Part shown: positions 6,229 through 31,981 of the stretch, in pieces
How positions within the stretch are numbered: the stretch's first letter is position 1
Layout of the letters: each line of letters begins with the position of its first letter
From: Thermoproteota archaeon
GTDB lineage: Archaea; Korarchaeota; Korarchaeia; Korarchaeales; Korarchaeaceae
NCBI GenBank assembly: GCA_027492205.1
Contig: JAOZFN010000003.1
Coordinates: 1 to 49,552, forward strand
Length of the DNA stretch: 49,552 bases
Direction: 5' to 3'
Made by a program: the position numbers and the translations under genes
The notes under the pieces: generated by a model
Database searches by the model: none
The model's input: the letters and a program-made list of their open reading frames with translations, nothing else
What the model was told of the DNA's origin: nothing

Positions 6229-7568
6229 CCCACCCCCAGCTCCCTGAGCGCGGAGATAGCGATCCCCCTCAGCTCGGTGAGCCCCTCCTCCCTCTCTGAC
6301 TCCGCGTAAATCCGAATCTTGGGCTCTGTCCCGCTCACCCGCAGGAGGATCCAACCGTCCTCTAGTATGAGCTTGACTCCGTCGAGCCTGCTGACTTCGA
6401 CAATCCTCCCACTAAGGGCCTCTTCCACCCTCGAGACCAGGGCCCTGAAGACCGCTTGCCTGTCTCCCTCGAAGAGAAAGCTCATCCTAAACTGATGATA
6501 CTTTGGGACGGCCTCCAGAGCCTCCCTCAAGGAGCCGAACTCCTCGACGGCCCTGAGGACGAGCGTTGAGGCCATGATCCCGTCGAAGAAGGGTCCCCAC
6601 TCGGGCACCATGATCTTCCAGGGCTCCGTCACCAGATCCGCCTCCCAGCCCTCTGACGCCCTCCTAAAGTACTCGCTGTGCAGGTCCCCCAGCCTCCACT
6701 CCACGACCTCTCCTCCTTGGGACCGTACGAGGTCTCGGATCCCCCACCCAATGTCCACGGAGACTATCACCCTCCTCGCCCGCAGCACCAGCGCGGCCAG
6801 CGAGGAGACGGCGTACTGCGGGACGAACTGCCCGGAGCCGTCGACGACCGCCACCCTGTCTGCGTCACCGTCCCAAGCTATCCCCATCTCGGCTCTCAAC
6901 CTTCTCACTAGGTCCCCGAGTCCAGCCAGGTTCTCACGAGTCGGCTCTGAGGGCCTGCCGGGAAACCTCCCGTCGACCCAGTCGTTCACAGTCGTGACCT
7001 CCGCGCCCATCCTCGATATGACCTCCGGGGCGAGGTTCGAGGCGCAACCGTTCCCCGGGTCCAATACGACCCTCGTGGCGACCTCGGAGCTGGAGATCCT
7101 CAGCAGGTCTCGAACGTAGTCGGTGGGCGTGTAGCCCGAGGGCGTGACCTCAGGTCTCCTCTCCGGGAGCCGAGGGCGCGGGAGCCCGTCGATCTCGCCC
7201 TCAATTTTCCTCTCCTCCTCCCGGGTGGCCTCCGCCCCCCTCGAAGATATGGCCTTGAAGCCGTTGAATTCTGGAGGGTTGTGGCTGGCGGTGACGTATA
7301 TTCCCGCGATTCCCTGCACCTTGGCCGACCTGCAGGTCACGGGCAGGGGCGCGAGCCCCAAGAGCTTGACGTCTTTACCCTCGGACAGCACCCCGCTGAT
7401 GACAGCCGCAGCCAGGGACGGGCTGCTGAGCCTCCCATCCCAGCCGACGAGGAAGGGCTCGCTTTCCATCACTCTCGCGACTGCCCTACCAAACCTCAAC
7501 GCTGAGACTTCGTCGATCTGGACCCCGTAAACCCCCCTGACGCCTGCGGTGCCGAACAGTTTCCCCAT
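6225..7568 (-). CDS. Phosphoglucomutase/phosphomannomutase (alpha-D-phosphohexomutase family)
   Basis: LFGTAGVRG, catalytic TASHNP, metal loop DGDADR, RVSGTEPKIRIY. Confidence 0.93.
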   Translation of the reverse strand: MGKLFGTAGVRGVYGVQIDEVSALRFGRAVARVMESEPFLVGWDGRLSSPSLAAAVISGVLSEGKDVKLLGLAPLPVTCRSAKVQGIAGIYVTASHNPPEFNGFKAISSRGAEATREEERKIEGEIDGLPRPRLPERRPEVTPSGYTPTDYVRDLLRISSSEVATRVVLDPGNGCASNLAPEVISRMGAEVTTVNDWVDGRFPGRPSEPTRENLAGLGDLVRRLRAEMGIAWDGDADRVAVVDGSGQFVPQYAVSSLAALVLRARRVIVSVDIGWGIRDLVRSQGGEVVEWRLGDLHSEYFRRASEGWEADLVTEPWKIMVPEWGPFFDGIMASTLVLRAVEEFGSLREALEAVPKYHQFRMSFLFEGDRQAVFRALVSRVEEALSGRIVEVSRLDGVKLILEDGWILLRVSGTEPKIRIYAESEREEGLTELRGIAISALRELGVG

Positions 7569-15846: not shown

Positions 15847-17324
15847 TAGAGTCTCCGGACGAATTGTTCGTGCTCGAGGAGAACGCCGAGTGGCTGGGAG
15901 TCACCCGCCTGCTCATGATGGAGAACGCCGCCGGGGCCGTGGTCAGGGCCGTGGAGGAGGTCCTGGGCGGCACGCTGAGGGACAGGAGGGTGTTCGTGTT
16001 CTGTGGGAGGGGGAACAACGGCGGCGACGGAATAACGGCGGCCAGGAGGATGGCCGCGCTCGGCGCCAGGGTCACGGTTATACTCGCGGGCGATCCTTCA
16101 GCAAGAGAGGCCTCCTACAACTTCGGGGTCATTAAGAGGGGAGTCTCCGTTGAGATCCGCCGCTATCCCGACCTCCCCGATGGGGAGCCCGACGCGGTGG
16201 TTGACGCCCTGCTGGGCACCGGCGTGAGGGGAGCGCCCAGGGGGGTCGTTGCCCAGGCAATCGAGGTCATCAACTCTCTGGGGGCCAAAGGGATCCCCGT
16301 CATTGCCGTCGACGCGCCCTCCGGCCTGAACCCGTTTACCGGCGAGGCCCCTGGCGCAGTCGTCAAGGCCAGCGTGACGGTCACGTTCCACGCCAGAAAG
16401 CCCGGGCTCAGGTCCGACCTCTGCGGGAGGGTGATCGTCGCCGAGGCGGGCGCGCCCGCGGAGTCGCTCCTCTACTGCGGCCCGGGAGACGTGAAGGTAA
16501 TCCTAAAGCCGAAGAGACCTCCTTGGTCCCACAAGGGGGACTTCGGCAGGGTTCTAGTGGTCGGCGGATCCTCGCGGTACACGGGGGCCCCGGCCATGGC
16601 CGCGATGGCCGCCCTGAAGGCCGGCGCCGATCTGGTGTCCATCGCCGCCCCCCGCTGGGTTTCCGCGACGATAAAGCCAATCTCGCCCAACCTCATCGTC
16701 CTCCCCTTGGAGAGTCAGGATCGGCTAGGGTCCGACGACGTGGACCTCGTGATCAGGGAGGCAGAAGGCGCCGACGCGGTCCTGCTCGGTCCGGGCCTTG
16801 GGGCAGATTCTGAGACCATCAGGTCGGCCGGAGAAATCTTGGGGAGGCTGAGGGATCTTGGAAAGCCGACGGTCGTCGACGCCGACGGGCTGAAGGCCGT
16901 CCCTCAGGACGGGGGGTGGCCCGGGCTGGTGATAACGCCACACGCAGGCGAGTTCCGGAGGATATTCGGCGAGGCTCCGGGCCCCGAACTCGGAGAGAGG
17001 GTGGGCTCCTGCCTACGCGCGGCCCGCGAACTAGGGGGAACGATTCTACTGAAGGGCCACGTCGATGTGATATGCTCTGGTGAAAGGGTGAGACTAAACG
17101 TCACGGGAAATCCCGCCATGACGGTAGGCGGGACGGGTGACGTCCTATCAGGCGTGACCGCCGCATTCCTGGCCATGTCGGGGAATCCGTTCAGGGCCGC
17201 CTCTGCCTCAGCGTTCTTGGTTGGACTGGCCGGAGACCTGGCGTTCGAGAGCCTCTCGTACTCGCTGACCGCCCAGGACGTCCTGGAGCACATACCGACG
17301 GCCCTCAAGAGGATAGGCTACTGA
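15843..17324 (+). CDS. nnr: Bifunctional NAD(P)H-hydrate epimerase/dehydratase (YjeF)
   Basis: LMMENA, GNNGGDG, DALLGTG, HKGDFG, GPGLG, DADGL, TPHAGEF, GGTGDVL; start adjusted to GTG 15843. Confidence 0.94.
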   Translation: MIESPDELFVLEENAEWLGVTRLLMMENAAGAVVRAVEEVLGGTLRDRRVFVFCGRGNNGGDGITAARRMAALGARVTVILAGDPSAREASYNFGVIKRGVSVEIRRYPDLPDGEPDAVVDALLGTGVRGAPRGVVAQAIEVINSLGAKGIPVIAVDAPSGLNPFTGEAPGAVVKASVTVTFHARKPGLRSDLCGRVIVAEAGAPAESLLYCGPGDVKVILKPKRPPWSHKGDFGRVLVVGGSSRYTGAPAMAAMAALKAGADLVSIAAPRWVSATIKPISPNLIVLPLESQDRLGSDDVDLVIREAEGADAVLLGPGLGADSETIRSAGEILGRLRDLGKPTVVDADGLKAVPQDGGWPGLVITPHAGEFRRIFGEAPGPELGERVGSCLRAARELGGTILLKGHVDVICSGERVRLNVTGNPAMTVGGTGDVLSGVTAAFLAMSGNPFRAASASAFLVGLAGDLAFESLSYSLTAQDVLEHIPTALKRIGY

Positions 17325-17436
17325 CGAGGGGCATAAGCCGAGACCGACGAGTGGAGGGCCCCGTCTGACCCGGTCCTTCGCTGGCCGGAAGGATCCCCAG
17401 AGAAAGTAATAAGGACCGGCGAGGGGAGTCCGCTCA

Positions 17437-17500
17437 GGGGACTATGAGCGATAGCTCCACAGCCTGATCTTGTGACGAGACTCTCCGCTACCGAGTCCCC
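17437..17500 (+). ncRNA. Candidate box C/D-like (K-turn) sRNA with its own promoter
   Basis: Terminal stem GGGGAC/GTCCCC, degenerate C box ATGAGCG, D' CTGA 17464-17467, C' GTGACGA 17472-17478, D CCGA 17491-17494; BRE/TATA-like AGAAAGTAATAA at 17401-17412. Confidence 0.5.
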
Positions 17501-17669
17501 CTCAACGACCTTAACCTTCTTGAGCTCAAATCCGGATCACAAAAGTCGCAATCCAAAAAAGTGAGGAGAGGCAAGATAGGGCAAGGAAGAAAGCGCGTTC
17601 TGGCCTCTCAGACACCTGCTCAGCCCCTACAAGCCGTTCTGAGGGGTCTTTCCCTGTCTGGTAGAACCT

Positions 17670-17881
17670 TCATTCAGGGCTTTCTGGGGGAACGGATCCT
17701 CCCCACATCTCGCAGCCTCTCCTCACTACGTTCATGGCCCCAACGACACCGCGATCGCCTTCGAATCCGCACCGTCGGCACTTCAATATCCGGAGCCACT
17801 TTAAGCAAGTTTGGCCTACACATCGGATATTATGATGGGGTCCCCTTGGGATTTACGTGAGCACCTTGCGGCCATATTTGC
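17670..17881 (-). pseudogene. tnpB: C-terminal remnant of an IS200/IS605-family TnpB (RNA-guided RuvC nuclease)
   Basis: Minus-strand translation across frameshifts: KYGRKVL / VNPKGTPS*YPMC / RILKCRRCGFEGDRGVVGAMNVVRRGCEMWGGSVPPESPE*; matches the TnpB pattern VNPxxTSxxCPxC...CxxCG.DRD..AxxNI. Confidence 0.75.
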
Positions 17882-20484
17882 CAGTCGGGGCCTGATTGCA
17901 ACGTCGGCAGGATCGACCGGAAGCCCGGCAAGTTCTACTACGTGGACAGGTTTTAATCGCCCCCTCAGTCGGGGCCTGATTGCAACCGATCTATTCTCCA
18001 CGTATCCATACCTATACATCGGCGGCCCAAAGGTTTTAATCGCCCCCTCAGTCGGGGCCTGATTGCAACGGCTGGACCTCCTCCCCGTCGACTGGCTCCC
18101 GCCGGAGGTCTCGTTTTAATCGCCCCCTCAGTCGGGGCCTGATTGCAACTTTCACGTAGATGGGTGAATCAGTCCACACAGTAAGGCGTATGTTTTAATC
18201 GCCCCCTCAGTCGGGGCCTGATTGCAACTCCTCGCGTTGCCAGCGTGCAGGTTGGTGCAGGTCACCCTGTGTTTTAATCGCCCCCTCAGTCGGGGCCTGA
18301 TTGCAACATGGACGTCAGTTCCCGCCCCCACCCGCCGGCCCTCGTTAGTTTTAATCGCCCCCTCAGTCGGGGCCTGATTGCAACTGGACCGACGCCGACG
18401 ACGGAATAGACATAGACGATTACGATGCCTATGAGTTTTAATCGCCCCCTCAGTCGGGGCCTGATTGCAACTACGGCTACCTGGCCGCCAGGGGCGCGGT
18501 GATAAGGGTCTGGCCCGCCGGTTTTAATCGCCCCCTCAGTCGGGGCCTGATTGCAACCTGGCTTCGCAGTGATACAGCACCGCACTTGGCAGAAGTTCAG
18601 TTTTAATCGCCCCCTCAGTCGGGGCCTGATTGCAACGTCCGGCTTTTCGTCGGCCACCTTCCTCCACAAACTGCGCGAATAGTTTTAATCGCCCCCTCAG
18701 TCGGGGCCTGATTGCAACTCGGCCCGACCCCGGCCGCCGTCTCGGCGTCCCCCCCGGGTTTTAATCGCCCCCTCAGTCGGGGCCTGATTGCAACCTTCTG
18801 TGGCTCAAGTTCAGGGGGATTCCGGTCAAGCTTCACCCTGTTTTAATCGCCCCCTCAGTCGGGGCCTGATTGCAACCGGGGGCGGGTGGTAGTATATGTA
18901 GAGTCCGGGTTGCAGAGTGATCGTTTTAATCGCCCCCTCAGTCGGGGCCTGATTGCAACTATCGCGAAGACCCTTACAGTAACCGCGAAGTTTGCGGGAA
19001 CGGCGAACTAGTTTTAATCGCCCCCTCAGTCGGGGCCTGATTGCAACCCAGAGGCCGGACTTCACCTCGAACCCCACGCTGACGGCCACGTCGGTTTTAA
19101 TCGCCCCCTCAGTCGGGGCCTGATTGCAACGTGTTGTCAACCGTGCAGTATGACGGCAGGTCGTCTGGATCGTTTTAATCGCCCCCTCAGTCGGGGCCTG
19201 ATTGCAACAGGACATGGAAGCCTACCTGTACTACGTCCCACCGGGCTTCAGGTTTTAATCGCCCCCTCAGTCGGGGCCTGATTGCAACTGGTCGTGAACG
19301 AGTCGATGACGCACATAGCTGCCTCCGCGTTTTAATCGCCCCCTCAGTCGGGGCCTGATTGCAACGTGTCGCTCGGCACGGTGAAGTCGTAGTAGTAGAT
19401 GCCCGGTTTTAATCGCCCCCTCAGTCGGGGCCTGATTGCAACGAGGGAGGCTCTGGAAGTACGGGTACGGATACACGGGCCTGACGATTGGTTTTAATCG
19501 CCCCCTCAGTCGGGGCCTGATTGCAACCGCGAGCTGGAAGATAGTGAAGGATCAGAGCGGGTACGTCAAGATATACTGTTTTAATCGCCCCCTCAGTCGG
19601 GGCCTGATTGCAACCTATGTCTCCGCGCTTGTCATGAAGAGTTGGAGCGGCAGTTTTAATCGCCCCCTCAGTCGGGGCCTGATTGCAACTTATAGTCGCG
19701 GGGGCCGCGGCGGTGCTGAGAGCTAAGTTTTAATCGCCCCCTCAGTCGGGGCCTGATTGCAACGAGGTAGTCGCGGCACTTGATTATGTATCTGTACTGC
19801 TTTGCGACGAGTTTTAATCGCCCCCTCAGTCGGGGCCTGATTGCAACGCGAGGAATGGCCTGACGCCCGAGTCGCGGCACGAGATACTGCTGTTTTAATC
19901 GCCCCCTCAGTCGGGGCCTGATTGCAACAGGTCCACCCAAGTTTTGACGTGCGGCTGCACTTGGGCGGGTTTTAATCGCCCCCTCAGTCGGGGCCTGATT
20001 GCAACGCGAGGAATGGCCTGACGCCCGAGTCGCGGCACGAGATACTGCTGTTTTAATCGCCCCCTCAGTCGGGGCCTGATTGCAACGGTAGTAGTAGAGG
20101 TGGTGGTGGTGGGGTGGAGCTAAAGGGTTTTAATCGCCCCCTCAGTCGGGGCCTGATTGCAACGTCTTATAAGGCTAAAATCTGCTCGTGTATGGAGGTG
20201 TGTGGCGTTTTAATCGCCCCCTCAGTCGGGGCCTGATTGCAACTACGAGGGTTACATGTCTCGCGGGGAGTTCTTAAGGTGGCTGGTGAGTTTTAATCGC
20301 CCCCTCAGTCGGGGCCTGATTGCAACTCTTTAAGAGTGCAGAGGAGCTCCAGTCAAGTGGATAGTCTATGTTTTAATCGCCCCCTCAGTCGGGGCCTGAT
20401 TGCAACCGAGAAAAGGTTTCTCTGCTCTGAATCGATTTACGATATTGGTTTTAATCGCCCCCTCAGTCGGGGCCTGATTGCAAC
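17882..20484 (-). CRISPR. CRISPR array: 32 full 37-bp repeats plus one truncated terminal repeat, 32 spacers of 37-51 bp
   Basis: Repeat (minus strand) GTTGCAATCAGGCCCCGACTGAGGGGGCGATTAAAAC; full copies from 17950 to 20484 and a 21-bp partial copy at 17882-17902; orientation inferred from the degenerate end, leader position and 8-nt ATTAAAAC handle. Confidence 0.98.
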
Positions 20485-20691
20485 CCTCGCTCTACCTAGC
20501 TACTCTCCCCGGACGCGACTAGGAGGCTACGTCTCTATCTCGGTCATAGCGCTGATCGAGGTTTTCGGTCCGGACCTTATAAAGATCAGCGCGATTCCAC
20601 AGTATTGCCTCCTTCCTGTACTAACGAAATCGTTAGTGCGCAAATGACGAATATGCAACACTTTTTCTACAACATAGTGCACCTACACTAT
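20485..20691 (-). promoter_or_regulatory. CRISPR leader and divergent csa3 promoter
   Basis: Non-coding region between the intact end repeat and csa3; minus-strand TATA-like TTTATAA at 20577-20583; several perfect inverted repeats. Confidence 0.7.
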
Positions 20692-21360
20692 GTGACGGTT
20701 AGGCGTAGGCTTTTCTCCACGGCCGTGGGGTATAGCGAACAACTGATGCTGAGAGCTTATCTAGCCGTAGGAATTAGAGAGGGCGATCGCATTCTCTTAA
20801 TAAGGTCGGAAAAAGAGGATGATCAGGCTAGGAGAGCTGAACATAACTTTAGAACGCTGATTGAGGGCCTGAGGCCTGGAATAGACATAGAGTCAGTTTC
20901 CATGGATCCGATGGATTTCGAGGGTAACACGGTGAAGCTGGTGAGGTTGTATGCCGAGGCTAAGAAGTCTGGATACTCCATTGTGGTGAACCCAATAGCC
21001 GGGCTCAGGGCGCTCGGCCTAGTCCAGATCCTCGCCCTAACCTTCGTTGGTGGTCAAGCAACCATCCATCTGGAGACGGGGGGAAGCGTAGAGTTGGTGA
21101 ACATACCCAGCTTTACTCCTCGCATAAGGGAGGAGAGGATAAGGGTTCTCATGGCAGTTGGGAGGGATAAGGGGCCTAAGCAGGTGGCAGAGGAACAGAA
21201 TATCACCCTACCTACGGTCTACAGGCATCTGAAGTCCCTTAGGGGTGAAGGTTTGCTGGACGGCTCTGGGAGGCTCACCATACTCGGGAGGGGCCTGATC
21301 GAGCTCTACCGGTGCGGGCTCATTTCTCCCGCTGCACGGAAATCGAATCATGTTAATTGA
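20692..21360 (+). CDS. csa3: CRISPR-associated transcriptional regulator Csa3 (CARF + wHTH)
   Basis: N-terminal TAVGY...LMLR, AGLRAL CARF motif, C-terminal HTH LPTVYRHLKSL...LTILGR; first gene of the cassette; start adjusted to GTG 20692. Confidence 0.85.
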   Translation: MTVRRRLFSTAVGYSEQLMLRAYLAVGIREGDRILLIRSEKEDDQARRAEHNFRTLIEGLRPGIDIESVSMDPMDFEGNTVKLVRLYAEAKKSGYSIVVNPIAGLRALGLVQILALTFVGGQATIHLETGGSVELVNIPSFTPRIREERIRVLMAVGRDKGPKQVAEEQNITLPTVYRHLKSLRGEGLLDGSGRLTILGRGLIELYRCGLISPAARKSNHVN

Positions 21361-21424
21361 ATTTACATCTTGTTGATAGAATCAGTTAAATTACTCTGGG
21401 AATCACTAGACTCAGGTCGGCCCT

Positions 21425-21847
21425 ATGTCCCTAGCAGGTGCGAGCAATAGGGCTCGGCTGGTAACCCTTCTCGAGGAAGATCCAGGCATCTACTTCTCCT
21501 TCAGAAGGGTTGCTGGCGTCCTACACTTCGTCGTCGAGCATGGAAGCATAAAGAACTACTTCCACGAACTAAAGCTCCTCGGGGTTGACCGTCCAGAGAG
21601 GTTTTCGTATATACTAGCCAGGGCCTTCGAGGAGTTCAGGAGGGAGATTCGCGAGGAGCCCATGAGACGTGAGGCACGAGGCGTCCTGAAAACCTTCGGC
21701 TTTAGGGAGGGTAGCGATCTTACGAGAGATTTTGAGGTCGTAACGAGGCTATACGTTCAGTACGGGAAAGAACTCCTTAACCAGCTCTTGGCCACAGTAT
21801 CGGCCCCATGCCCTGTTTGTGTGAGCGAGGTGATTGAAACTGGGTAG
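21425..21847 (+). CDS. csa5: Probable type I-A small subunit Csa5 (Cas11a)
   Basis: Small helical protein immediately upstream of cas7 in the canonical I-A order; no strong sequence motif recognised. Confidence 0.55.
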   Translation: MSLAGASNRARLVTLLEEDPGIYFSFRRVAGVLHFVVEHGSIKNYFHELKLLGVDRPERFSYILARAFEEFRREIREEPMRREARGVLKTFGFREGSDLTRDFEVVTRLYVQYGKELLNQLLATVSAPCPVCVSEVIETG

Positions 21848-22922
21848 CCCACTCGATTTTGAGCCCAGGTATATGAGCCTCGCCGCGAAGTTGGTTTTGA
21901 ATGTTCACGACCTCAACAACGAGAGAGCTGAGGAAATTAGAACAGTCCCCGTCATTTACGAGGTTAACGGGCGTTGGAAGATCGTCTCTGAGGCGGTGGC
22001 CGTAAGCGGACAGATGCTCAAGCACTGGCACTTAGCCTCGATGGTAAACATCGCTGAGGCGCGAGATCTCATTGACAAGGTGGGCTTTTGCGGTAGATGC
22101 AGAAAGAGGGAGGGGATCAGAGTCTCAAGGGACGATGCCGTCGCTCTCGCCAAGAGGCTAAGCAAACAACCTAAGAACCTCACGGAGAAGGACATAATCG
22201 AGGCTTGCGCAGGTGAGGATGTCCACGGCTTCCTCTTGACAAACCCCATTACAATCAGAAGGGAGTCTCTGGTTAGATTCTCTTGGATGCTTCCCTGTTT
22301 CTTAGAGGAGGCTTTGGAGAGTTCGGGGACGGTAACCCCATACAAGGTTGTCATCCACACTAGGAACGTGAGGGCCCCAGGGAAAGGCGCATCTGACGCA
22401 AGCTCTAGCGAGACCCGTGATGAAGGAGGCTTGACCTCAGAGGAATACCAGTCCGAGAGGAGGACTCCCGAGCAGATGCCGTTCTACAGATCGTATGCAT
22501 CAGGCATATATGGATTTATTTCAACTGCAGACTTGGCTCACATCGGATTTTCATTTAACGACTTAGAGCCCATAGGAAATAAGGAAAGGGTGATGTTGAG
22601 GAGAAAGCTCCTGATAGAGGCCTATGCGCCCATGCTATCAGGTCTCGGGGCATCTCTCTCTAGAGCTCTGCCGGCGTCGGCCATACTGGAGCTCATGGTC
22701 GTCTTCAGCGACGGACCTCTGCCAGCACCGGTGCATCCAATATATCCAAGCTACCTAGAGCGAAATATCAGACTCTACCACGATCAGGCCAAGGCCTTGG
22801 GATCAAATCTCATGGTGTTCCTGTGGACCAAGGAACCAACCGACCTGATGAATAGAGAAGCTGAATTCCCGAGACTTCGAATCGTTGGCAGCCCCGTAGG
22901 CTGGATAGGGGAGGTGATCTAG
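21834..22922 (+). CDS. cas7: Type I-A Cascade backbone Cas7 (Csa2/DevR)
   Basis: VHDLNNE, AVSGQMLKHWH, CxxC, DVHGFL, IRRESLVRFS, YASGIYGF. Confidence 0.92.
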   Translation: MKLGSPLDFEPRYMSLAAKLVLNVHDLNNERAEEIRTVPVIYEVNGRWKIVSEAVAVSGQMLKHWHLASMVNIAEARDLIDKVGFCGRCRKREGIRVSRDDAVALAKRLSKQPKNLTEKDIIEACAGEDVHGFLLTNPITIRRESLVRFSWMLPCFLEEALESSGTVTPYKVVIHTRNVRAPGKGASDASSSETRDEGGLTSEEYQSERRTPEQMPFYRSYASGIYGFISTADLAHIGFSFNDLEPIGNKERVMLRRKLLIEAYAPMLSGLGASLSRALPASAILELMVVFSDGPLPAPVHPIYPSYLERNIRLYHDQAKALGSNLMVFLWTKEPTDLMNREAEFPRLRIVGSPVGWIGEVI

Positions 22923-22949
22923 CTCAAGAAATCCTGAGAGTTCTTTAGG

Positions 22950-23915
22950 GTGCTGGCCTTGAGGCTCGTCGCCGTCGGTGGGTCCATGCTGATACCCATG
23001 TTTTCAGCGAGGGACCCCCTCTCTCACGGCGTCAGACTGTCGTATCTCCTCCCGCCCCCAACTACCCTTCTTGGCGCCTTTGGATCCGGTCTCGGCCTAA
23101 CTCTCGGCATTCCAAGAGGTGAGTGCCCGGCAGGGGGTAGGCAGGTCAGAGACGTACTGAGGTATGCCCTCGAAGAATCCGCGTTGGCGATCGTTAAGCC
23201 CGAGGGCCCCATAATCAAGTCTGCTCAGATGTGGAAGCTTGTTAACTTAGAGAAGGAGAGCACCTCCAAGTCTAGTAAGAAAGAGTCGGAGAGGGGCTTA
23301 CATGACGCATTCGAGGCTGAATACATCTCTTCCTCAAAGATCGGCCTTACGTTCATCGTGGACCTAGACCTCTTGAGCGAGGGACTATCTGAACTGGCCT
23401 CATCCGCGTGCGCGGACCCCACTATTAGATCCGTTGGTGACGTGGGGCTGGGTCCAGAAGACCTTGTGAAGGCTATTACGCTCATGGATAGGTTGGGCTC
23501 GACGGAGAACCTTGGGAGAGTCACACATGCCTCTCTACTTTCGATAAAGAACGTAGAGACTTCAGGCTTGCTTGACTCCTGTGTGCCCTTAGAGTGGATC
23601 CAATCCGTAGAGGCAGCGAGGCCTCACGAGTCGGCCGAGCAGATCATCCTGCCAGTAAACAGATTCGTGTCTAACCGCGTGAGATCCGCTAAGGCAGATA
23701 AGATCAAGGGTAGAGAGTGGTCCCGAGTATGGTTCTTGGCGCCCCTGAGGCCCGGTACCAAGAGGATGAGGGGTAAGCGCATCCCTGTGTACGAACCAGC
23801 GCCGATCAGGGTGCAGGCCAATGATGGTTACGTCGTGGCGACTCTGGAGGATCCTAAGGGCGAGTTGAGGTTCGTCACCGTTCTCCCAGAGGACATCGCT
23901 AGGGAACTGGGGTGA
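22950..23915 (+). CDS. cas5: Type I-A Cas5
   Basis: SYLLPPPTTLLGA N-terminal motif, RLGSTE, position after cas7. Confidence 0.88.
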   Translation: MLALRLVAVGGSMLIPMFSARDPLSHGVRLSYLLPPPTTLLGAFGSGLGLTLGIPRGECPAGGRQVRDVLRYALEESALAIVKPEGPIIKSAQMWKLVNLEKESTSKSSKKESERGLHDAFEAEYISSSKIGLTFIVDLDLLSEGLSELASSACADPTIRSVGDVGLGPEDLVKAITLMDRLGSTENLGRVTHASLLSIKNVETSGLLDSCVPLEWIQSVEAARPHESAEQIILPVNRFVSNRVRSAKADKIKGREWSRVWFLAPLRPGTKRMRGKRIPVYEPAPIRVQANDGYVVATLEDPKGELRFVTVLPEDIARELG

Positions 23916-25798
23916 CAGCTTTGGGCGAGTGGCTCCGAGACGTAAAGAAGGTCTACGAACTCGCCCACCAAAGACCATTCAGACCTCGGCAGGCGCAGGA
24001 GGTCGCCATAGATGGCATGGAGAGGGCTTTCGAAGAATTCAGCGAAGGCGATGAGGTCAGACCCATACTGGTCAGGCTGCCAACCGGTTACGGCAAGACG
24101 CTGGTGGGCCTGTCTGCAATGATTCACCAGGCCGCCTCCGGCCGCTGGTTAACCCGAGGGCTGGTCTATACTCTCCCTACGAGGACCCTGACCCGAAGGC
24201 TCTGGGAGAGCTCAACGAACTTGCTGAAAGCCGCAGGTCGCGGGTTCCGCCGCGAGGGAGAGGCTCAACTTATGGGGCCCTACCGCGCAGTCAGAGAGTT
24301 TCATGGGGGCAACCTAGATGCGTCTCACTTCGCCGCCACGGTGGCGGTCAGTACGTTCGATGTCTTTGCGCTGGCCTACGCCCGTAGGAGCAGGGCGGGA
24401 TTTCACTTAGAGCTCCCAGCGGGCGTGATAGCGACCTCATACGTGGTCTTCGATGAGGCCCACATGCTGAGAGACGACTACTCCTACACTCACCTCGTCA
24501 TGGGGAGACTCGTGAGACATCTAACATCGGCCGGAGTTCCCGTGGTGGTGATGACGGCCACGATGCCTAGGACCCTGGAGGAGATGGTGTTCGACGGAGA
24601 GGAGCCCATCAGACTCCCTGATGATCAGTCCTACTTTGGTACAAAGGAAGAAGAGTACAGAGGGAGGATCAAGTCGATTGAGCTTCAAGATTTTGAGAGC
24701 GAAGGCGCTAGCGTGGAATATGTCGTAGAGTTCGTGTCAGAAAACCTTAGGAGGGGAGATCGGCGGATCTTGCTAATTCTAAACGAGGTAGGCCGGGCCA
24801 TTCTGTTCTACAAGCGGCTGGCGAAGGAGTTGGGGGGTAAGGCCAAGGTAGGCCTGATCCACTCCAGAATATACAAGCAGGATAGGGACAGGAGGGAAGC
24901 TGAGGCATTTCGTGCCCTAGGAAAGGAACCTGAGGGCCCTTACGTACTTGTCGCCACACAGGTCGTGGAAGCTGGACTCGACGTAAGTTCTGATCTGCTC
25001 ATCACCGACTGCGCGCCGCTAGACTCCCTCGTTCAGAGGCTTGGGAGGTGCGCCAGATGGCCTGGAGAAATAGGAAACGCCTTAATTCTCAGATATCCCA
25101 AAGTGGGGCGTCCCTACCCTCAAGATCTCGTGGATGAGTCCTGGGAGGCTCTGAGAGACGCTAAGTCTGACGGAGAAAGGGCCAACAACTTGCTAGACCC
25201 AGCCTATGTCATGAGAAGTCTGGACGATGTCTATCAGGGTCTGGCAATAAAGCCCCTCTCCTCAAGGTTGGAGGAGTACCTTGCGTACTTGGACGGCCTC
25301 GGCTTGACCACCTTCTCGGCGAACAGGAACGTGATGAGGACCGTCATGGCGAGGCCGGATGCCTTCTTCACGTTGGTCGTTCCTGCGGGGAGGTTCGAGA
25401 TATTTGAACTGTCGAGGGGCGAGGACTGTTGGACCGTGGCCATGGAGCGCGTTACAGACTACTCGGGCGTTCTTGAGGGCTTGAGAGAAGGTAAGGTGGT
25501 TGCATTAGAGGCTCTCTGGGCCATGAATCACAGCTTCTCCGCGAACAGGAGGGTCGTGAAGAGAGGGGACGAGTTCAGGCCCTTCGTGCTGCATCAGATC
25601 ACCCCTAATGGTGGGAAGCAAGCGATAGAGCTGAGGCTAATTCAAGCCTTCCGAGGTGGAGACCAGATCTCTCTCTACGCTCTTAAGAGAGCCGAGGAAA
25701 TCCCGTGGGAGGGCATATTCCTCCTGAACCCAGAGATGTATGACGAAGAAGCAGGATTGGGCGTTATATCAAGGGAGGGTGAGCAGAATGCCGATTAG
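23912..25798 (+). CDS. cas3: Cas3' SF2 helicase
   Basis: LPTGYGKT, DEAH, MTAT, LIHSR, ATQVVEAGLD, QRLGRCAR. Confidence 0.95.
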   Translation: MTALGEWLRDVKKVYELAHQRPFRPRQAQEVAIDGMERAFEEFSEGDEVRPILVRLPTGYGKTLVGLSAMIHQAASGRWLTRGLVYTLPTRTLTRRLWESSTNLLKAAGRGFRREGEAQLMGPYRAVREFHGGNLDASHFAATVAVSTFDVFALAYARRSRAGFHLELPAGVIATSYVVFDEAHMLRDDYSYTHLVMGRLVRHLTSAGVPVVVMTATMPRTLEEMVFDGEEPIRLPDDQSYFGTKEEEYRGRIKSIELQDFESEGASVEYVVEFVSENLRRGDRRILLILNEVGRAILFYKRLAKELGGKAKVGLIHSRIYKQDRDRREAEAFRALGKEPEGPYVLVATQVVEAGLDVSSDLLITDCAPLDSLVQRLGRCARWPGEIGNALILRYPKVGRPYPQDLVDESWEALRDAKSDGERANNLLDPAYVMRSLDDVYQGLAIKPLSSRLEEYLAYLDGLGLTTFSANRNVMRTVMARPDAFFTLVVPAGRFEIFELSRGEDCWTVAMERVTDYSGVLEGLREGKVVALEALWAMNHSFSANRRVVKRGDEFRPFVLHQITPNGGKQAIELRLIQAFRGGDQISLYALKRAEEIPWEGIFLLNPEMYDEEAGLGVISREGEQNAD

Positions 25799-26627
25799 GA
25801 CATTCTCTTGCCGATTTGCGGGAGAATGCGTCTTCAGGGGGCGAGAGTTCTGCGGAGATGGTGAGGCACCTGCCACCCTCCCGCTGAGATCTTATCACCC
25901 TGACCCCTCTAAGGGGGAACTCCCAGAGTGCTACGTTCACCACATCGCTAGGTCGCTCGAATTCTGGAGGTCACAGAAAGACAGGTTTGCCCGTAGCCTG
26001 GCGCGGCTGATGAGGCACTCCCTCGGCCTTGAGCTGAATCGGGATCAAGTCGTCGACGCAGTATCTCTCCTTGTGGCCCATCACGATGCTGGTAAGCTCA
26101 CTAGAAACTATCAGGAGGGGGTTAGAGGATATAGGCACGAACTGATAAGCGCGTTTTTGCTCTGGGATCGGGCCCTCATGCTAGGGCAGGAGTTTGGATT
26201 AGGCGAGGCTGACAGGATGCTACTTGCAGCCGCTCTCACCTCGGCTTGCTATCTACACCATGAGGCTATACAGGTAATGTTTCGCATGTGGGATGTGAGG
26301 GCGCCGACATATGGGGATCTCCTGTCAAGACTGAGCAGATTAGAAGTGGAGACCCTCCCGTATGCTAAAGAACTCGTGGAGTGGCAAGAGAGGGAGGCCA
26401 CTGGCAGGATCTTAGGCCACTTTGACTGGCCGCGTTGCATCAGAGGACGGGAAATGGTTTCAAAGTTGGCTAAAGCTGTGACCCTGGTCGACGGCGCGGC
26501 CAATCCCGTAGAAGTGAGGATGACAGTCTCGGCTCTTCTCTTGGCGCTCACGTATGCGGATAACGTCGCAGCAATGCAGAGGGGAGGGGCCGTGCGCAGC
26601 TTCCACAGGGCAATATTGGGGGTATGA
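25788..26627 (+). CDS. cas3: Cas3'' stand-alone HD nuclease
   Basis: YVHH, HHDAGK, RHELISA, LHHE, YAD motifs; start adjusted to ATG 25788. Confidence 0.9.
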   Translation: MPIRTFSCRFAGECVFRGREFCGDGEAPATLPLRSYHPDPSKGELPECYVHHIARSLEFWRSQKDRFARSLARLMRHSLGLELNRDQVVDAVSLLVAHHDAGKLTRNYQEGVRGYRHELISAFLLWDRALMLGQEFGLGEADRMLLAAALTSACYLHHEAIQVMFRMWDVRAPTYGDLLSRLSRLEVETLPYAKELVEWQEREATGRILGHFDWPRCIRGREMVSKLAKAVTLVDGAANPVEVRMTVSALLLALTYADNVAAMQRGGAVRSFHRAILGV

Positions 26628-28201
26628 ACTTGGCGGAAGTTACGTACCGGAGAACTGGCGATAAGATCCTCGATTCCCTCGTTTTGGCGGCCCTCACAGA
26701 TCTGACAGAGAGGCTGCGAGGAGAGGTTGAGTGGTATCCCGTAGATCCCCTCGGCGAGCCAAGTCTGATCAGGGTGAGCCTCCCTCAGGCCAAGACTGCA
26801 CTCGAAGTCAGGACTCAGCTGGCGCGAGAACTCGCCAGGGCCGTTAGGTCCTACTTTGTTGGCAGATCTCTTAGCGCGATTCGAGTTAATACCGGTGGTC
26901 GGGGAAAGCCGATTGAGAGGGATTTTTGCCTGTTCTGTTCCATGAAAAGCAGGCATAGGTGCCCAAGCGTAGACCTACTCGAAGCTGTGCGTGCGTTCGC
27001 AGAAAGCCCCACCGAGCATGCCCGGGAGGACAAGACGAGCACCCTTCTATCAGAGGTGGAACTTCAAGTGGCCTCAGAGTTGCTATTGTTTGTCGGCAGG
27101 GAGGGATTGGTCCTCGACGATCTGAAGGGAGGCGTCAAAAGGGGCCTGGAAGACTGTATGAAGAGACAAGATCCTTACAAGTTGCGCGAGATCTTAAGCA
27201 GACTAGGTAAGAAAGAGTTGAAAAAGATCAGGCTGAGGAGCCCATATCAACTCTTCTCCTTCTTTCCGTCAGGGATGAGGAAAACGAGGATCTCCGAGAT
27301 CAAGAATATCCCTGGGGGGCCGAATCCACCTCCCTATCTGATCTTAAGGCTCATCGTCAACGAATTAGCCCGCAGCGGGTCTCTAAATGAGTGGTCCCCA
27401 TTCGCAGTGTCTAAGGGGAAAACTAGCGGAGCAGAATCTCTCTATATATTCTTGTCTCCATACTGGTCAAAGGGAAAGTACGTATGGGACGGCAGGTATG
27501 AATCATCGTCTTCCTCCGTTCCGAGACAAATAGCCGCTCTGGCGCTCTACGGGACGTCGTTGCTAGGCCTATCGTGGCTGGCAGGCGTAGCGGTCTCTTT
27601 ACTCCTTATCCCACCTACACTCCCAGCGAACCACGCAGCGGCGGTGAAGCAGCTGAGCTTAGCCAGGCGGTTCGTGCGACTGACGAGCTTCGGCGAGTAC
27701 CAGAGCTATATTCTAGACAGGCGGATCTTGGCGTCACTGCCAGGGAGAGTTAAGTATCTTCCGATACTGACGAACTTGGACATTCCAGCGTTGGCAGAGC
27801 TTGCTAAGGGCGGATGGAAGTTCCTTCTAGTTGAGTTCGACACTAGACAAGGGATGCCTCAAAACCCAAGAAACTTCAGGGAGGAGGATCCAGGGCAGCT
27901 GGCAAGGTTCTTGATCGACTTGGGAGAGCACTTCAGCGAATTCAGAGAATGGATTCACTTCCTTATGAGCGCGTTTAGAATGGAAAAACACAGGAGAGAA
28001 GCGTCTGAAGTTCTGCTGGAGATAAGGAATGCGATAGTGTTTGGAGATCCATCGCGACTATCCATCGCGCTTGATAGATCGCTTAGGTTAGTCAAAACCA
28101 ACAATAGCCTAAGCTGGGGGATTTATGCTATCCCAAGAGGGAAGGCAGTCTCTCGAATGATCGAAGCAATTCAGAGGGCGGAGTCCGAGGTGTCGGATTG
28201 A
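26624..28201 (+). CDS. cas8a: Divergent type I-A large subunit Cas8a (Csa4/Cas8a2-like)
   Basis: Position after cas3''; N-terminal TGDKILDSLVL and central SLYIFLSPYWSKG...ALALYG resemble Csa4 motifs. Confidence 0.65.
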   Translation: MNLAEVTYRRTGDKILDSLVLAALTDLTERLRGEVEWYPVDPLGEPSLIRVSLPQAKTALEVRTQLARELARAVRSYFVGRSLSAIRVNTGGRGKPIERDFCLFCSMKSRHRCPSVDLLEAVRAFAESPTEHAREDKTSTLLSEVELQVASELLLFVGREGLVLDDLKGGVKRGLEDCMKRQDPYKLREILSRLGKKELKKIRLRSPYQLFSFFPSGMRKTRISEIKNIPGGPNPPPYLILRLIVNELARSGSLNEWSPFAVSKGKTSGAESLYIFLSPYWSKGKYVWDGRYESSSSSVPRQIAALALYGTSLLGLSWLAGVAVSLLLIPPTLPANHAAAVKQLSLARRFVRLTSFGEYQSYILDRRILASLPGRVKYLPILTNLDIPALAELAKGGWKFLLVEFDTRQGMPQNPRNFREEDPGQLARFLIDLGEHFSEFREWIHFLMSAFRMEKHRREASEVLLEIRNAIVFGDPSRLSIALDRSLRLVKTNNSLSWGIYAIPRGKAVSRMIEAIQRAESEVSD

Positions 28202-29001
28202 TGCCTGCCTTCGTGACTGTCAAGTTGTACCCTTCAACCACATTGATCTACGAGATCCCGTCCTCAGGCAAGCTGGCTCAGAGCTTATTCTTCAAGACCC
28301 TTGGATCGGCCGACCCCGAGTTAGCGCGCGAGATCCATGACGATCCTGCCTGCTCTGGTCTCAGCGCTCCATACGCCGTGAGCAGAATAACCACGGGTAG
28401 GCAGTACGTCCATGGGATATCTGCGGCTGTTGCGCCCGGGGATCATGTGAGGCTGACTGTAAAGCTCCTCAGGGATGACTTGCTTGACCCACTTCTGAGG
28501 GGTCTGGCATCGGGGGAGTTTGAGCTTAATCGTGTCCCAGTAACCCCAATGGAGGTCAAGTTTCACAGAAAGCGCTACGACGACCTGTGGAGAGACAGTC
28601 CTATTGCGCGGAAGGTTTCCTTTAGGTTCCTGACTCACGCTCTCATTGGAAAGGCCTTCCCGCCGTCCCTTAGCACTCTCCTTGAGAGACCCATAGCCGC
28701 TTGGAATGCTTGGGCTCCGGAGTACCTGAAGTTTGACGAGGAGCACCTTAAGGGTCTCGAGCTGGCCGCTCCTACATCGCCCAGTTGGCTGAGAGAAGGT
28801 GCCGTGAGATTGTGGCATGGAACGCAGAGGAGAGAGTACATAGGTTACTTGGGGCAGCTCACCTACGACCTGAGGCGACTAGACTCCTTCTCCGGCAGGA
28901 TCCTAGCTACTCTCGCAAGGTTTTCTGAGTTCTCTGGGATAGGCACTAAGACTACCATGGGATTTGGCGTTGTAAGGGTTAGTCTCGGAGTTTGGAGGTA
29001 A
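28198..29001 (+). CDS. cas6: crRNA-processing endoribonuclease Cas6
   Basis: AREIHD, PYAVS, FRFLT, C-terminal G-rich loop FSGIGTKTTMGFG. Confidence 0.92.
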   Translation: MMPAFVTVKLYPSTTLIYEIPSSGKLAQSLFFKTLGSADPELAREIHDDPACSGLSAPYAVSRITTGRQYVHGISAAVAPGDHVRLTVKLLRDDLLDPLLRGLASGEFELNRVPVTPMEVKFHRKRYDDLWRDSPIARKVSFRFLTHALIGKAFPPSLSTLLERPIAAWNAWAPEYLKFDEEHLKGLELAAPTSPSWLREGAVRLWHGTQRREYIGYLGQLTYDLRRLDSFSGRILATLARFSEFSGIGTKTTMGFGVVRVSLGVWR

Positions 29002-29132
29002 AGTAGATTTCTTAGATTCCTTAGTTTAGTCATGAGTAACTCAAGCCCTAGACCTTACTAATTGGCGTATTCAGCGCTAAACATCGTGCTGAGAGACTGG
29101 GATCGCTCGAAATGACTCTCCATTCGAAAAGA

Positions 29133-30020
29133 TCAGGAGGAGAGGCCGAGGGCGGCCTCCAGCGCCCTCGCCCTTGCGGCCGCCTTCCTCAGGATGAGTT
29201 CGGCGGTCTTAGGCGATACCCACCCGATCTCGCTGGCGAGGGCCAGCGCCTTCTGCGCCGCCCTGGCCACGATGGGCTCGACGGTCTTGTCCGTGACGAT
29301 GCCCTGCTCGACGGCCAGCGATATTCCGGCACCGGCGGCCCTGCTCAGCTCTTTCAGTATCTCCTCCCTCGTCTTGGCGAGCACTTCCGGGGACCAGAAG
29401 ATGCCCTCCTTGTCCACGGCGCCAGAGACCTCAAGCCTGACCTCGACCGGCTTTATCCCGAGGGCCTTCAGTATCTCCGCGATCTGCGCCTGGACCTTCT
29501 CGCCCCTCTTGACTATCACGAAGTCCTCGGAGATGGATATCTTGCCCCCCACGATCTTGGTGGGGACGCCAAGTGCCCTGAGGTCGGTCAGTATCGGGCC
29601 TGGGGCCAGGTCCGTGGGTCCGGCCGGTATCACTATGTCCTCCTTCGCCACCTCCCCGGGCATTATGTCTACGTTGACCGTTTTCTCCCTGAGCTTCTGG
29701 TAGAGCCTCCACGGGCTCTCCTTGCTGAAGATTATCATGAGCCTCTGCGGCACGTGGTCGAGGAGCTTGTTCAGTCCCTCCCTGAAGTCGACCTTTGAGA
29801 AGGCTATCGGGACTAGCCTCTTCTTCACGACCATCAGCTTCGTGTCCGGGGCGAGCTCCTTTCTGATCCTCTGCAGGAAGTCCGCCGGGGATCTTCCAAA
29901 GTCGGCGAACATGACCGTTGGGAACTCCTTGGCTCCCTCGACTATCTTGCGAACCATCTCCTCCTTCCTGAGCCTGGCCGGGCTCTTCCTCTTCCTGGCC
30001 CTCACTTCCGCGGAGCTCAT
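29133..30020 (-). CDS. rpl10: 50S ribosomal protein uL10 (P0)
   Basis: LQRIRKEL, IVIPAGPTDLAPGP, LGVPTKI, LKALGIKP; follows L1. Confidence 0.92.
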   Translation of the reverse strand: MSSAEVRARKRKSPARLRKEEMVRKIVEGAKEFPTVMFADFGRSPADFLQRIRKELAPDTKLMVVKKRLVPIAFSKVDFREGLNKLLDHVPQRLMIIFSKESPWRLYQKLREKTVNVDIMPGEVAKEDIVIPAGPTDLAPGPILTDLRALGVPTKIVGGKISISEDFVIVKRGEKVQAQIAEILKALGIKPVEVRLEVSGAVDKEGIFWSPEVLAKTREEILKELSRAAGAGISLAVEQGIVTDKTVEPIVARAAQKALALASEIGWVSPKTAELILRKAAARARALEAALGLSS

Positions 30021-30715
30021 CTCTTCCTTCGCCTCCCACCCATTGCGGCCTCGACCCTTATCGCGGGCCCCATCGTGGTCTTGACGTACACGGCCTCCAG
30101 CACTCCCAGATCACCGTACTTCCTCTCCAGGGCGGCCAGCACGGCCTTAATGTTCTCCACTATCTCGTCGGGATCCATGTCCCTCGTGCCCACCCGCGCG
30201 TGGATGACGGGCTGATCCCTCATCCTTACCCTCACGGACCTCTTCAGCCTCTGGATGGTGTCCGGCAGCTGATCCACCCTCGTGGCCGGGAGCGGAATGG
30301 GCATCTTGTTCCTGGGGCCGAATATAGGGCCTATGTCCCTGGCCAGCTTGGGTAGGGCGTCGGCCTGGGCGACGAAGAAGTCGAACCTGTTGGCCAGCTT
30401 CCGGAGTTCCCTCTTGTTCTTGGCCACGCTGAGGATCTCGGCCGGGTCGAAGACCGCGTCCGCCCCGGCGTCCCTCGCCTTGGTCGCGAACTCTCCCGTC
30501 CCTATGACCGCCACCTTGGCCTCCTTCCCCTTCGGCGCGTGTGGGAGCGCGACTATCTCGTTGATCTTGAGGGACGGGTCCTTCTTGAGATCCAGCCCCC
30601 TGAACACCACCGTGAGGTCAACGGACTCCTTGAACCTCCTCCGGGGGCTCTCCTCTATGGCCCTCCTCACGGCCTCCCTCAGGGGATCTTCCAACGCGGA
30701 GATCGTAACGGCCAT
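30017..30715 (-). CDS. rpl1: 50S ribosomal protein uL1
   Basis: RRFKESVDL, LPH, GPRNKMP, VYVKTTMGP. Confidence 0.95.
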   Translation of the reverse strand: MAVTISALEDPLREAVRRAIEESPRRRFKESVDLTVVFRGLDLKKDPSLKINEIVALPHAPKGKEAKVAVIGTGEFATKARDAGADAVFDPAEILSVAKNKRELRKLANRFDFFVAQADALPKLARDIGPIFGPRNKMPIPLPATRVDQLPDTIQRLKRSVRVRMRDQPVIHARVGTRDMDPDEIVENIKAVLAALERKYGDLGVLEAVYVKTTMGPAIRVEAAMGGRRRKR

Positions 30716-30737
30716 GATCAACACCCCTCACGCCTAT

Positions 30738-31229
30738 TCAGGATCCCTCCTCCTTCAAGAGGTCGTCCCAGAGACCTGCGTCGACGTCCTTGATGGCCTC
30801 CTTGGGGTGCTTTCCCTCCACGGTCATGCCAACGCTGACGGCCGTGCCGAGCACCTGCTTCACCGCCGACTTCAGGCTGGTGGTGTTCATGGACTCGAGC
30901 TTCATCTTGGCTACCTTCACGATCTGCTCCCTCTTCAGGTCACCGACCGACTTCGAGCCAGCCTCGCCCGATCCCTTCTCAACACCTATCTCTCGGATCA
31001 GCAGCATTGAGGTCGGGGGGAGGCCGACCCTCACCTCGTACTGTCTGGTCTCCAGATCGACGATTATCTCGACTGGGACCTTCATCCCCGCGTATTCCTT
31101 CGTCTTCTGATTTATCTCGCCTACTATCCTGCCTATGTCAACTCCGAGGCCGCCCAGCGCCGGGCCGATCGGCGGCCCAGGCGTGGCCTTTCCACCTTCC
31201 ACGAGGACCTTGACGACCTTCTTGGGCAT
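30738..31229 (-). CDS. rpl11: 50S ribosomal protein uL11
   Basis: VEGGKATPGPPIGPALG, GMKVPV, PPTS; GGAGGTG RBS before ATG 31229. Confidence 0.96.
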   Translation of the reverse strand: MPKKVVKVLVEGGKATPGPPIGPALGGLGVDIGRIVGEINQKTKEYAGMKVPVEIIVDLETRQYEVRVGLPPTSMLLIREIGVEKGSGEAGSKSVGDLKREQIVKVAKMKLESMNTTSLKSAVKQVLGTAVSVGMTVEGKHPKEAIKDVDAGLWDDLLKEEGS

Positions 31230-31250
31230 CTGGTACACCTCCTCAGCCTA

Positions 31251-31784
31251 TCAGGCTTCCTCTTCCCCAGGAGGAGCCTCCTCCCCCTTCTCCCCTCCCT
31301 TCTCCACCAGCTTGACGCTGTCGACGGGGAGTTGGACCTCCCAGTCTCGCTCGATGTCGAGCAGCCTCGCCGTTATCAACTTTCTCCCCTTCCCCGAGGG
31401 TGAGGAGAGGACGAGCGCGCGGAATCCCTTGAAGTTACCCCTGATTATCTGGACTACGTCCCCCGGCTCTATCTCAATCTTCTCGGGCTCCCTGTAGAGG
31501 AGGGCGTCGATCTCCGAGAGCGGGACGGGACTGCCGGGGAGCATCTTTGCCCTGGACACTCCCTTCACGAGCTTCCTGACCTCGTACTCCCTGTCGGCCT
31601 CTAGGAACAGGTAACCCCTCAGCCTGGGGACGAAGAGGATGGATCTCACTCCCAGCCGTGAGTACTCTGCCTTCTTGGCGAGGAGCTTTATGATCCCGGC
31701 CTCTTGCCCAGCGGGCACCTTCACGACGAAGAAGAAAGCCCGCCCCTCTCGCTCCTCGCCTCTGCCTCCGGCGCCCTCGCTCAT
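31251..31784 (-). CDS. spt5: Transcription elongation factor Spt5/NusG
   Basis: NGN domain (GQE, LRGYLFLEA) and KOW motif (PGDVVQIIRGNFKG); start adjusted to ATG 31784. Confidence 0.92.
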   Translation of the reverse strand: MSEGAGGRGEEREGRAFFFVVKVPAGQEAGIIKLLAKKAEYSRLGVRSILFVPRLRGYLFLEADREYEVRKLVKGVSRAKMLPGSPVPLSEIDALLYREPEKIEIEPGDVVQIIRGNFKGFRALVLSSPSGKGRKLITARLLDIERDWEVQLPVDSVKLVEKGGEKGEEAPPGEEEA

Positions 31785-31804
31785 CGCCCAAGCACCCTCG
31801 GAGC

Positions 31805-31981
31805 CTATACCTGCCCCCCGCTCATCAGGGTGACGGCCAGCTGCAGGAGGAAGCCGATCAACCCGACGAGCAAGAAGCCCAAGAACGTTATCTTGAAGAC
31901 CGTCCAGAGGTCGTCCCACGTGGGCTTTCTAGCCACCTTGAGCGTCCTCTTGATGGCCTCTAAGATATCCTCGCCCACCAA
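31805..31981 (-). CDS. secE: Protein translocase subunit SecE/Sec61-gamma (58 aa, not in the ORF track)
   Basis: Manual translation MVGEDILEAIKRTLKVARKPTWDDLWTVFKITFLGFLLVGLIGFLLQL...; ARKP motif plus one TM helix; conserved ftsZ-secE-spt5 order. Confidence 0.92.
   Translation of the reverse strand: MVGEDILEAIKRTLKVARKPTWDDLWTVFKITFLGFLLVGLIGFLLQLAVTLMSGGQV

Follow-up and report, generated by a model that had tools for sequence, protein, structure and literature searches.

Conserved associations between Cas12 genes and clustered regularly interspaced short palindromic repeat (CRISPR) arrays place the array almost always downstream of the gene, an arrangement that mirrors the omega-RNA, according to the sections on locus layout of the survey by Altae-Tran et al. 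(PMC10691335). The same sections left out loci whose arrays belong to other CRISPR types, did not rule out the insertion of a tnpB gene near a pre-existing array as a route to Cas12, and use the IS607-type family name for insertion sequences (IS). TranC systems are RNA-guided endonucleases of transposon origin, as stated in the relevant part of their description (10.1101/2025.09.28.678669). In this study, we analyzed a stretch of 49,552 nucleotides (the window), which is the whole of contig C10 (JAOZFN010000003.1) of a Korarchaeaceae genome, hereafter G000. The genome is a metagenome-assembled genome (MAG) of 17 contigs and 1.94 Mb, 96% complete by marker genes. At the trailer end of a CRISPR array in the window, a truncated repeat is joined base-to-base to the remnant of a tnpB gene in the same orientation (17882/17881). 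We believe that this junction is probably a scar of illegitimate recombination, in which a dead IS already residing at the site was joined to a CRISPR-Cas island.

The locus resembles the type V effectors (Cas12f-like, V-U groups) and TranC in that TnpB-family sequence lies directly beside an array and is co-oriented with it, as far as the relevant part of the TranC description goes (10.1101/2025.09.28.678669). The array is almost always downstream of the gene in the conserved associations covered by the layout sections of the survey (PMC10691335), whereas here it is upstream of the tnpB stub. Moreover, the array here comes with a type I-A cas set that includes cas6, the tnpB copy is no longer functional, and its relatives are not array-linked. 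With an association that is not conserved and an array that is both upstream and of type I-A, the locus does not qualify as a type V locus. The second comparison is with the exchange of CRISPR-Cas modules in Escherichia coli, for which the sections considered here describe a variable cassette between conserved flanks and insertion sequences among the features that separate the arrangements (PMC3903273). Both of these traits are found at our locus. In contrast to that case, the genome here is of archaeal type, as judged from the type I-A cas genes, the C/D-box-like sRNA, the TATA-type motif of the leader and the length of the tRNA genes; the breakpoint lies inside a repeat and inside an IS gene, and the IS would predate the cassette rather than disrupt it.

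The array (17950-20484, minus strand) consists of 32 exact copies of a 37-nt repeat, which reads GTTGCAATCAGGCCCCGACTGAGGGGGCGATTAAAAC on the minus strand. Its spacers, 32 with the trailer-most one included, are 37-51 nt each. The trailer-most spacer (17903-17949, minus strand, 47 nt) has no complete repeat on its 3' side. The 33rd repeat copy found there (17882-17902, minus strand) stops after the first 21 of 37 nt, so the earlier note on this DNA had read the last repeat correctly (17902-17882). When the following 16 nt were compared by eye with the rest of the repeat, 1/16 positions agreed, which indicates a clean truncation and not a degenerate terminal repeat. The leader (20485-20604, minus strand) contains a TATA-type promoter motif of 18 nt, GCGCTGATCTTTATAAGG (20592-20575), about 90 nt from the first repeat. 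This motif was found exactly four times in G000, each time at an array leader. The three others are on contig C1 at a similar distance, and the main repeat of these three C1 arrays ends in ATTGAAAG, the usual end (handle consensus) of such repeats. Because the leader matches the leaders of other arrays, the sense strand of the array is the minus one, and the truncated repeat lies at the trailer end of the array. Therefore, the tnpB stub is co-oriented with array transcription, as had been claimed. Among the genus relatives, G003 has two copies of the motif with one mismatch.

The sequence joined to the truncated repeat was identified by tblastn and DNA alignments as the 3' remnant of an IS607-type tnpB pseudogene (17596-17881, minus strand), comprising approximately the last 86 codons with the zinc ribbon and RuvC-III region, followed by the right-end terminus. 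The peptides quoted in the earlier note were all found in minus-strand frames downstream of the truncated repeat. With the TnpB protein of the closest intact copy, on contig C11 of G000, as the query, the stub was matched at E = 4e-19 when positions 17000-18000 were searched (40/84 residues identical, 48%, at the C-terminus) and at E = 2e-12 when the whole genome was searched. The two sequences also showed 53% identity over 66 aa. The Pfam model PF07282 (Cas12f1-like TNB) gave E = 1.1e-4 and 22.7 bits, below its cut-off of 26.3 bits, and 19.4 bits in a second scan, as would be expected of a short piece with a broken frame. Thus, the homology check that had been suggested for this region was significant by tblastn and below the cut-off by Pfam. 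Among 58 TnpB stretches taken from 55 of 80 metagenome loci, that of L169 reads WQCGKYGAPVVAVDP at the junction position, which supports the KYGRKVL frame and shows that the TnpB homology reaches the junction. Elsewhere in G000, the best match to the DNA of the stub was only 107 nt at 78%.

The stub carries many lesions. DNA alignments showed single-base deletions that shift the frame, and two in-frame TAA stops lie within 17825-17838 and 17796-17808. In the zinc ribbon, the first CxxC reads YPMC (first Cys to Tyr) and the second pair reads CRRC. In the RuvC-III region, DRD has become DRG at 17748-17759, and we take the lost Asp to be the catalytic one from the motif D-x-N-A-A-x-N. The description of a TnpB zinc ribbon and RuvC-III with frameshifts, a stop and an altered DRD was therefore borne out, with two stops. 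A complete TnpB is not encoded, since the RuvC-I/RuvC-II reading frame is gone and neither the zinc ribbon nor the acidic motif is intact. The right-end terminus is kept as GGCCAGAACG at 17605-17596. Judged by its sequence, the stub is a non-functional 3' remnant (approximately 285 bp) of an IS607-type insertion sequence. A retained structured omega-RNA was considered and rejected, since the fold of the stub (z = -2.08; G002 counterpart z = -0.67) is unremarkable.

Two intact tnpB genes were found in G000, on contigs C11 and C3. The C11 gene is an open frame of 402 codons. Upstream of it lies a gene for a 202-aa protein with a helix-turn-helix N-terminus and a serine-recombinase core, and the C3 homologue of this protein is 53% identical. 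We take both elements to be IS607-type, a family that pairs a MerR-HTH serine-recombinase TnpA with TnpB. The stub is assigned to this type because its nearest intact homologues, C11 and C3, both have a serine-recombinase TnpA. The bounds of the C11 element (45788-47633) were fixed by two empty sites in G003, and its right end is therefore located about 20 nt past the tnpB stop. The terminus of this element (...GGGTTAGAAC) is kept in the tnpB copies on contig C46 of G001 and contig C99 of G002, in two metagenome copies (L102 and L103) and in the stub. Compared with the C11 element (C11:45788-47633), the stub likewise has C-terminal TnpB sequence, the second CxxC, the RuvC-III DRD position and the right-end terminus ...YAGAACG, but it keeps only about the last 86 codons and the right end, with lesions. 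Neither a tnpA fragment nor an IS left end was found in the window.

The surroundings of the stub were compared with four other species of the same genus (G001 to G004), and the wider searches covered 36 genomes of the family and 43 of the phylum. By blastn, synteny with the congeners stopped at 17501 and resumed at 29125 (possibly 29110), and the corresponding gap was only 30 bp in G003, 30 bp in G001 and 75 bp in G004. Because 17501 and 29125 are adjacent in three congeners, the DNA from 17502 to about 29124 is an 11.6-kb indel that holds the stub, array, leader and cas genes. The guanine-cytosine (GC) content of this island is 0.53-0.58, compared with 0.635-0.649 in the flanks and 0.634 in the genome, and that of the cas cassette is 0.544. 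The best match to the island Cas7 among the 36 family genomes was 35% identical, and no match at E<=1e-40 was found among the 43 phylum genomes. By their low GC content and the lack of a close Cas7 homologue, the cas genes look foreign.

The island begins at the last base of a 66-nt small RNA (sRNA) gene (17436-17501, plus strand), which was recognized by its conservation and synteny and marks the left boundary. It is kept in 5/5 genus genomes and is the last base-for-base syntenic sequence to the left of the island. The element is closed by a terminal stem (GGGGACU/AGUCCCC) and carries CUGA-like D' and D boxes as well as two putative guides of about 11-12 nt that hardly vary, and from this sequence it is probably a C/D-box sRNA gene. 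The C/D box assignment was made by eye on what we take to be the consensus motifs, and Rfam gave no match at E<=1 in 16500-21000, which includes the element. Between this sRNA gene and the next gene, each species has DNA of its own that is not homologous to that of the others (17502-29124 in the window, G002:C99:554-1800, and 3847-3920 of locus L033 on G004:C16), and by this sequence comparison the interval is a recombination hot spot.

Contig C99 of G002 (15.9 kb) is collinear with 29125-42467 of the window and carries a 1.25-kb insert (554-1800) at the same site as the island. Within the insert lies a pseudogene of this tnpB that is longer than the stub and points the same way. It has an internal deletion and a frameshift, but its last 99 codons are open and its DRD is intact, and it is followed by 260 bp of AT-rich DNA. 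This pseudogene is 72% identical to the stub over 221 nt. In the window, the stretch from the IS right end to the sRNA gene (17502-17595, minus strand) is non-IS DNA, and its first approximately 50 nt past the right end (about 17594-17544, with a T6 run within 17553-17563) are common only to the G000 and G002 alleles. The local alignment of this flank scored 26, which 0/500 shuffles reached, and the flanks of four other IS copies scored 12-13. Therefore, a single insertion event gave rise to both the G000 and the G002 copy. A scan of the whole of contig C99 found no array and no cas genes, and relaxed blastn found no trace of repeat or cas DNA in the insert. The presence of the same tnpB insertion without CRISPR in G002 indicates that the transposon insertion was independent of CRISPR.

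Linkage between tnpB homologues and arrays was then surveyed. Arrays were called from at least three exact 14-mers at a spacing of 45-110 nt, a rule which degenerate or two-repeat arrays escape and by which a positive control was detected. With the C11 TnpB as the query (E<=1e-20), 12/36 family genomes had homologues, at 26 distinct places outside the window. No array was found at 22 of these places within up to about 8 kb on each side, nor at two further places within ±1.5 kb, and of the last two, scanned as whole contigs, G002:C99 had none and G001:C46 had one. The total was thus 1/26. On G001:C46 (L035), a frameshifted tnpB pseudogene and a 13-repeat array (1785-2887 and 6020-6964) were found; the array is 3.1 kb from the 5' end of the pseudogene, with three oppositely oriented genes for membrane or secreted proteins between them. 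At the DNA level, this pseudogene and the intact C11 copy share 79% identity. Among the metagenome tnpB loci, the best 80 of 199 confirmed loci were examined for arrays. One of the 80 had an array, a three-repeat mini-array 1.45 kb downstream, and none was closer to the stub than 73% over 109 nt. The homologues are thus ordinary IS copies with 1/26 and 1/80 places near arrays, and there is no conserved TnpB-array association.

A search of 40 relatives that allowed up to 3 mismatches did not recover the array repeat itself. Its 21-mer had a single-copy chance match in the genome collection, in an unrelated bacterial MAG, and no match in the metagenome contig collection. Therefore, no relative with the array, and hence no ancestral trailer, was recovered. 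The earlier note had expected relatives to keep an intact tnpB linked to this array, and these searches do not agree with that expectation.

The spacers connect the array with the rest of the genome. The third spacer from the trailer (18070-18112) is identical at 42/43 nt to a spacer at C1:74078-74119, in an array with a different repeat which, with 78 repeats, is the main array of the genome. G000 has a single cas1 gene (C1:82551-83414), located between two other arrays. The window array and the C1 main array have probably acquired spacers in the same lineage, served by this cas1, and the shared spacer suggests that both acquired it from the same invader. In a check for self-targeting, no spacer of the window array matched tnpB or IS copies. 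Within the array, two repeat-spacer units are tandemly duplicated at 19811-20164 (TRF period 158), and the spacers starting at 19848 and 20006 in this duplication are identical.

We propose the following course of events for the recombination scar, whose order and mechanism of joining we infer from the comparison of alleles. An IS607-type element would have inserted next to the sRNA gene, in the interval up to the following gene, long before there was a CRISPR-Cas locus at the site. It may have decayed, or may still have been intact, when a type I-A island with the array, leader and eight cas-region open reading frames, all of low GC content, entered the same interval in the G000 lineage only. 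An illegitimate, non-homologous join, either at the integration of the island or by a later deletion, would then have removed the old trailer end of the array, the 5' part of tnpB (about 315 codons), and any tnpA and left end. The breakpoints would lie after base 21 of the repeat and at about codon 316-319 of tnpB (numbering of the C11 open frame). Transcription of the precursor CRISPR RNA probably continues across the stub as far as the T6 run at about 17560, and the last spacer would lack a Cas6 site on its 3' side. Nothing at the locus would be expected to work as a TnpB-CRISPR system.

Several observations weigh against this course of events. An ancestral allele with the IS and CRISPR-Cas together, followed by the loss of CRISPR-Cas in G002, is also possible. 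The flanks of G002 and G004 are 96-98% identical, yet their alleles differ at the island site, which indicates that the site is exchanged by recombination and that simple parsimony along the species tree cannot be relied on. The genus itself has the leader motif as a native feature, and one spacer is common to the window array and the main array; thus, the array is not simply foreign, though the cas genes look so. The tnpB pseudogene on G001:C46 lies 3.1 kb beyond an array trailer and is co-oriented with that array. Finally, the junction between repeat and tnpB is known from a single MAG contig. In a second explanation, the scar is just as incidental but arose in the reverse order, from an ancestor that held cas genes, array and full IS, after which G000 lost the trailer and the 5' part of tnpB, G002 lost CRISPR-Cas, and nothing was kept in the remaining three species. 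In favour of it, the age of the IS allele is considerable, with G000 and G002 copies just 72% identical, the site is a recombination hot spot, and the leader motif is a native one. IS607 elements excise precisely, which would make clean losses plausible. However, more independent losses are needed, no repeat or cas trace remained in the G002 insert by relaxed blastn, and the cas genes have a low GC content and no close homologue in the 43 phylum genomes, so we regard this order as rather unlikely, although it deserves some weight.

The earlier note had taken the junction for a fossil of a TnpB-CRISPR association. Under this explanation, an active tnpB at the trailer used, or was close to using, the array transcripts, as a Cas12f-like effector in the making that shared the array with type I-A, until a deletion destroyed it. 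The position of the stub next to the array, its co-orientation, and the related G001 pseudogene, also co-oriented 3.1 kb downstream of an array trailer, would fit, and Altae-Tran et al. allow tnpB insertion near a pre-existing array as a route to Cas12 in the sections considered here (PMC10691335). Against these points, the same insertion in G002 without any CRISPR weakens the explanation; the homologues are ordinary IS607-type elements with arrays near only 1/26 and 1/80 places, and this is essentially the situation that had been named in advance as speaking for a chance insertion. The upstream position of the array relative to the gene is the reverse of the conserved Cas12 layouts in those sections (PMC10691335), the array belongs to a Cas6-bearing type I-A system, the stub is heavily damaged, and the repeat had no match in the 40 relatives, the genome collection (apart from the one chance match) or the metagenome collection. 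We therefore consider a fossil of this kind very improbable. What stands of the earlier proposal, a co-oriented tnpB joined to the array by a deletion, is that the remnant is real and that a deletion or an illegitimate join is its only sensible origin. An assembly artefact, in which array and stub were wrongly joined or the sequence between them collapsed, seems to us less probable still. The genome is a 17-contig MAG, and CRISPR arrays are hard to assemble; other arrays of G000 contain runs of N. On the other hand, contig C10 contains no N, the left flank is linked to the stub just as it is in G002, the right flank is continuous with the cas genes, and the two outer flanks are adjacent in three congeners. 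An artefact is unlikely because both sides of the join thus belong to one locus. A mis-join in a de Bruijn graph would also need a shared k-mer, and the repeat and stub DNA are otherwise absent from the genome except for the 107-nt, 78% match. A transposon carrying CRISPR-Cas as cargo was rejected as well, since the right end of the island compared with the C11 IS left end was equalled or exceeded in score by 161/200 shuffles, the left end compared with the C11 right end by 91/200, and the window contains no tnpA fragment.

The type I-A cas cassette (20605-29001, plus strand) was annotated by NCBIfam matches, several of them below the curated cut-offs, with two open reading frames without a match. 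All genes are on the plus strand. The csa3 gene (20605-21360) was matched below the cut-off and is followed by an open reading frame of 140 aa without an NCBIfam match (21425-21847), which could be Csa5 by its position. For cas7/csa2 (21834-22922), the DevR/Cas7 subfamily model was above its cut-off and the Cas7/Csa2 model below. The cas5a (22950-23915) and cas3' (23912-25798) genes were matched above the cut-off, and cas3'' (25740-26627) and cas6 (28198-29001) below it. The 525-aa open reading frame between the last two (26624-28201) could be Cas8a by position only, and no NCBIfam model matched this putative Cas8a or the putative Csa5. With Cas7/Csa2, Cas5a, the split Cas3'/Cas3'', Cas6 and Csa3 beside a leader-bearing array, the locus is of type I-A. 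The right end of the island (29002-29124, no strand assigned) was placed by the resumption of synteny with the congeners. Elsewhere in the window, ARAGORN found tRNA genes for Cys, Ile, Phe and Leu at 33285-33375, 33431-33525, 48899-48991 and 49115-49203, each 89-95 nt long. Leu tRNA is normally long and tRNA introns are common in archaea; the Cys, Ile and Phe genes are longer than ordinary ones, which suggests introns.

A further array was observed on contig C1 (107599-108094). It has seven repeats and a normal leader, and its 37-nt repeats are chimeric. The first 14 nt are those of the C1 repeat, whereas the 23 nt that complete it, TACGCCTTTTTTGCCCAGAACGT, show no relation to that repeat; they include a T6 run and finish with GCCCAGAACGT. 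Without its final T, this end has the ten bases GCCCAGAACG, which agree at 9/10 with the right-end terminus of the IS in the stub. The 23-nt part was found nowhere else among the 43 phylum genomes, its 20-nt core was not found in viral contigs, and the syntenic region of G001 has a normal array. One idea is that a truncated first repeat together with adjacent DNA may have been copied by ruler-based spacer integration.

It could be imagined that recombination between CRISPR repeats and IS607-type tnpB right ends exceeds the chance level in this lineage, and that the ancestor had an intact tnpB directly downstream of a type I-A array and co-transcribed with it. The G001 pseudogene 3.1 kb past an array trailer and the chimeric C1 repeats ending in GCCCAGAACG are hints of such recombination-prone right ends, but we think this idea improbable. 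If it were true, the ancestor would be a natural example of a transposon landing beside a pre-existing array, the route which Altae-Tran et al. mention in the sections considered here (PMC10691335), and the locus would capture, in a way seldom seen in nature, a transposon nuclease under array transcription. As it stands, the finding that a CRISPR-Cas island is bordered by the stub of a dead IS matters little, and such a scar is expected at an intergenic hot spot used by both mobile DNA and variable defence loci. The finding does advise caution, because a tnpB fragment adjoining an array is not evidence of a transition from TnpB to Cas12, and synteny with four congeners sufficed to show this. 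The locus also delimits a type I-A island of 11.6 kb, shows that it was inserted next to a small RNA gene, and indicates that the arrays of G000 suffer breaks inside repeats.

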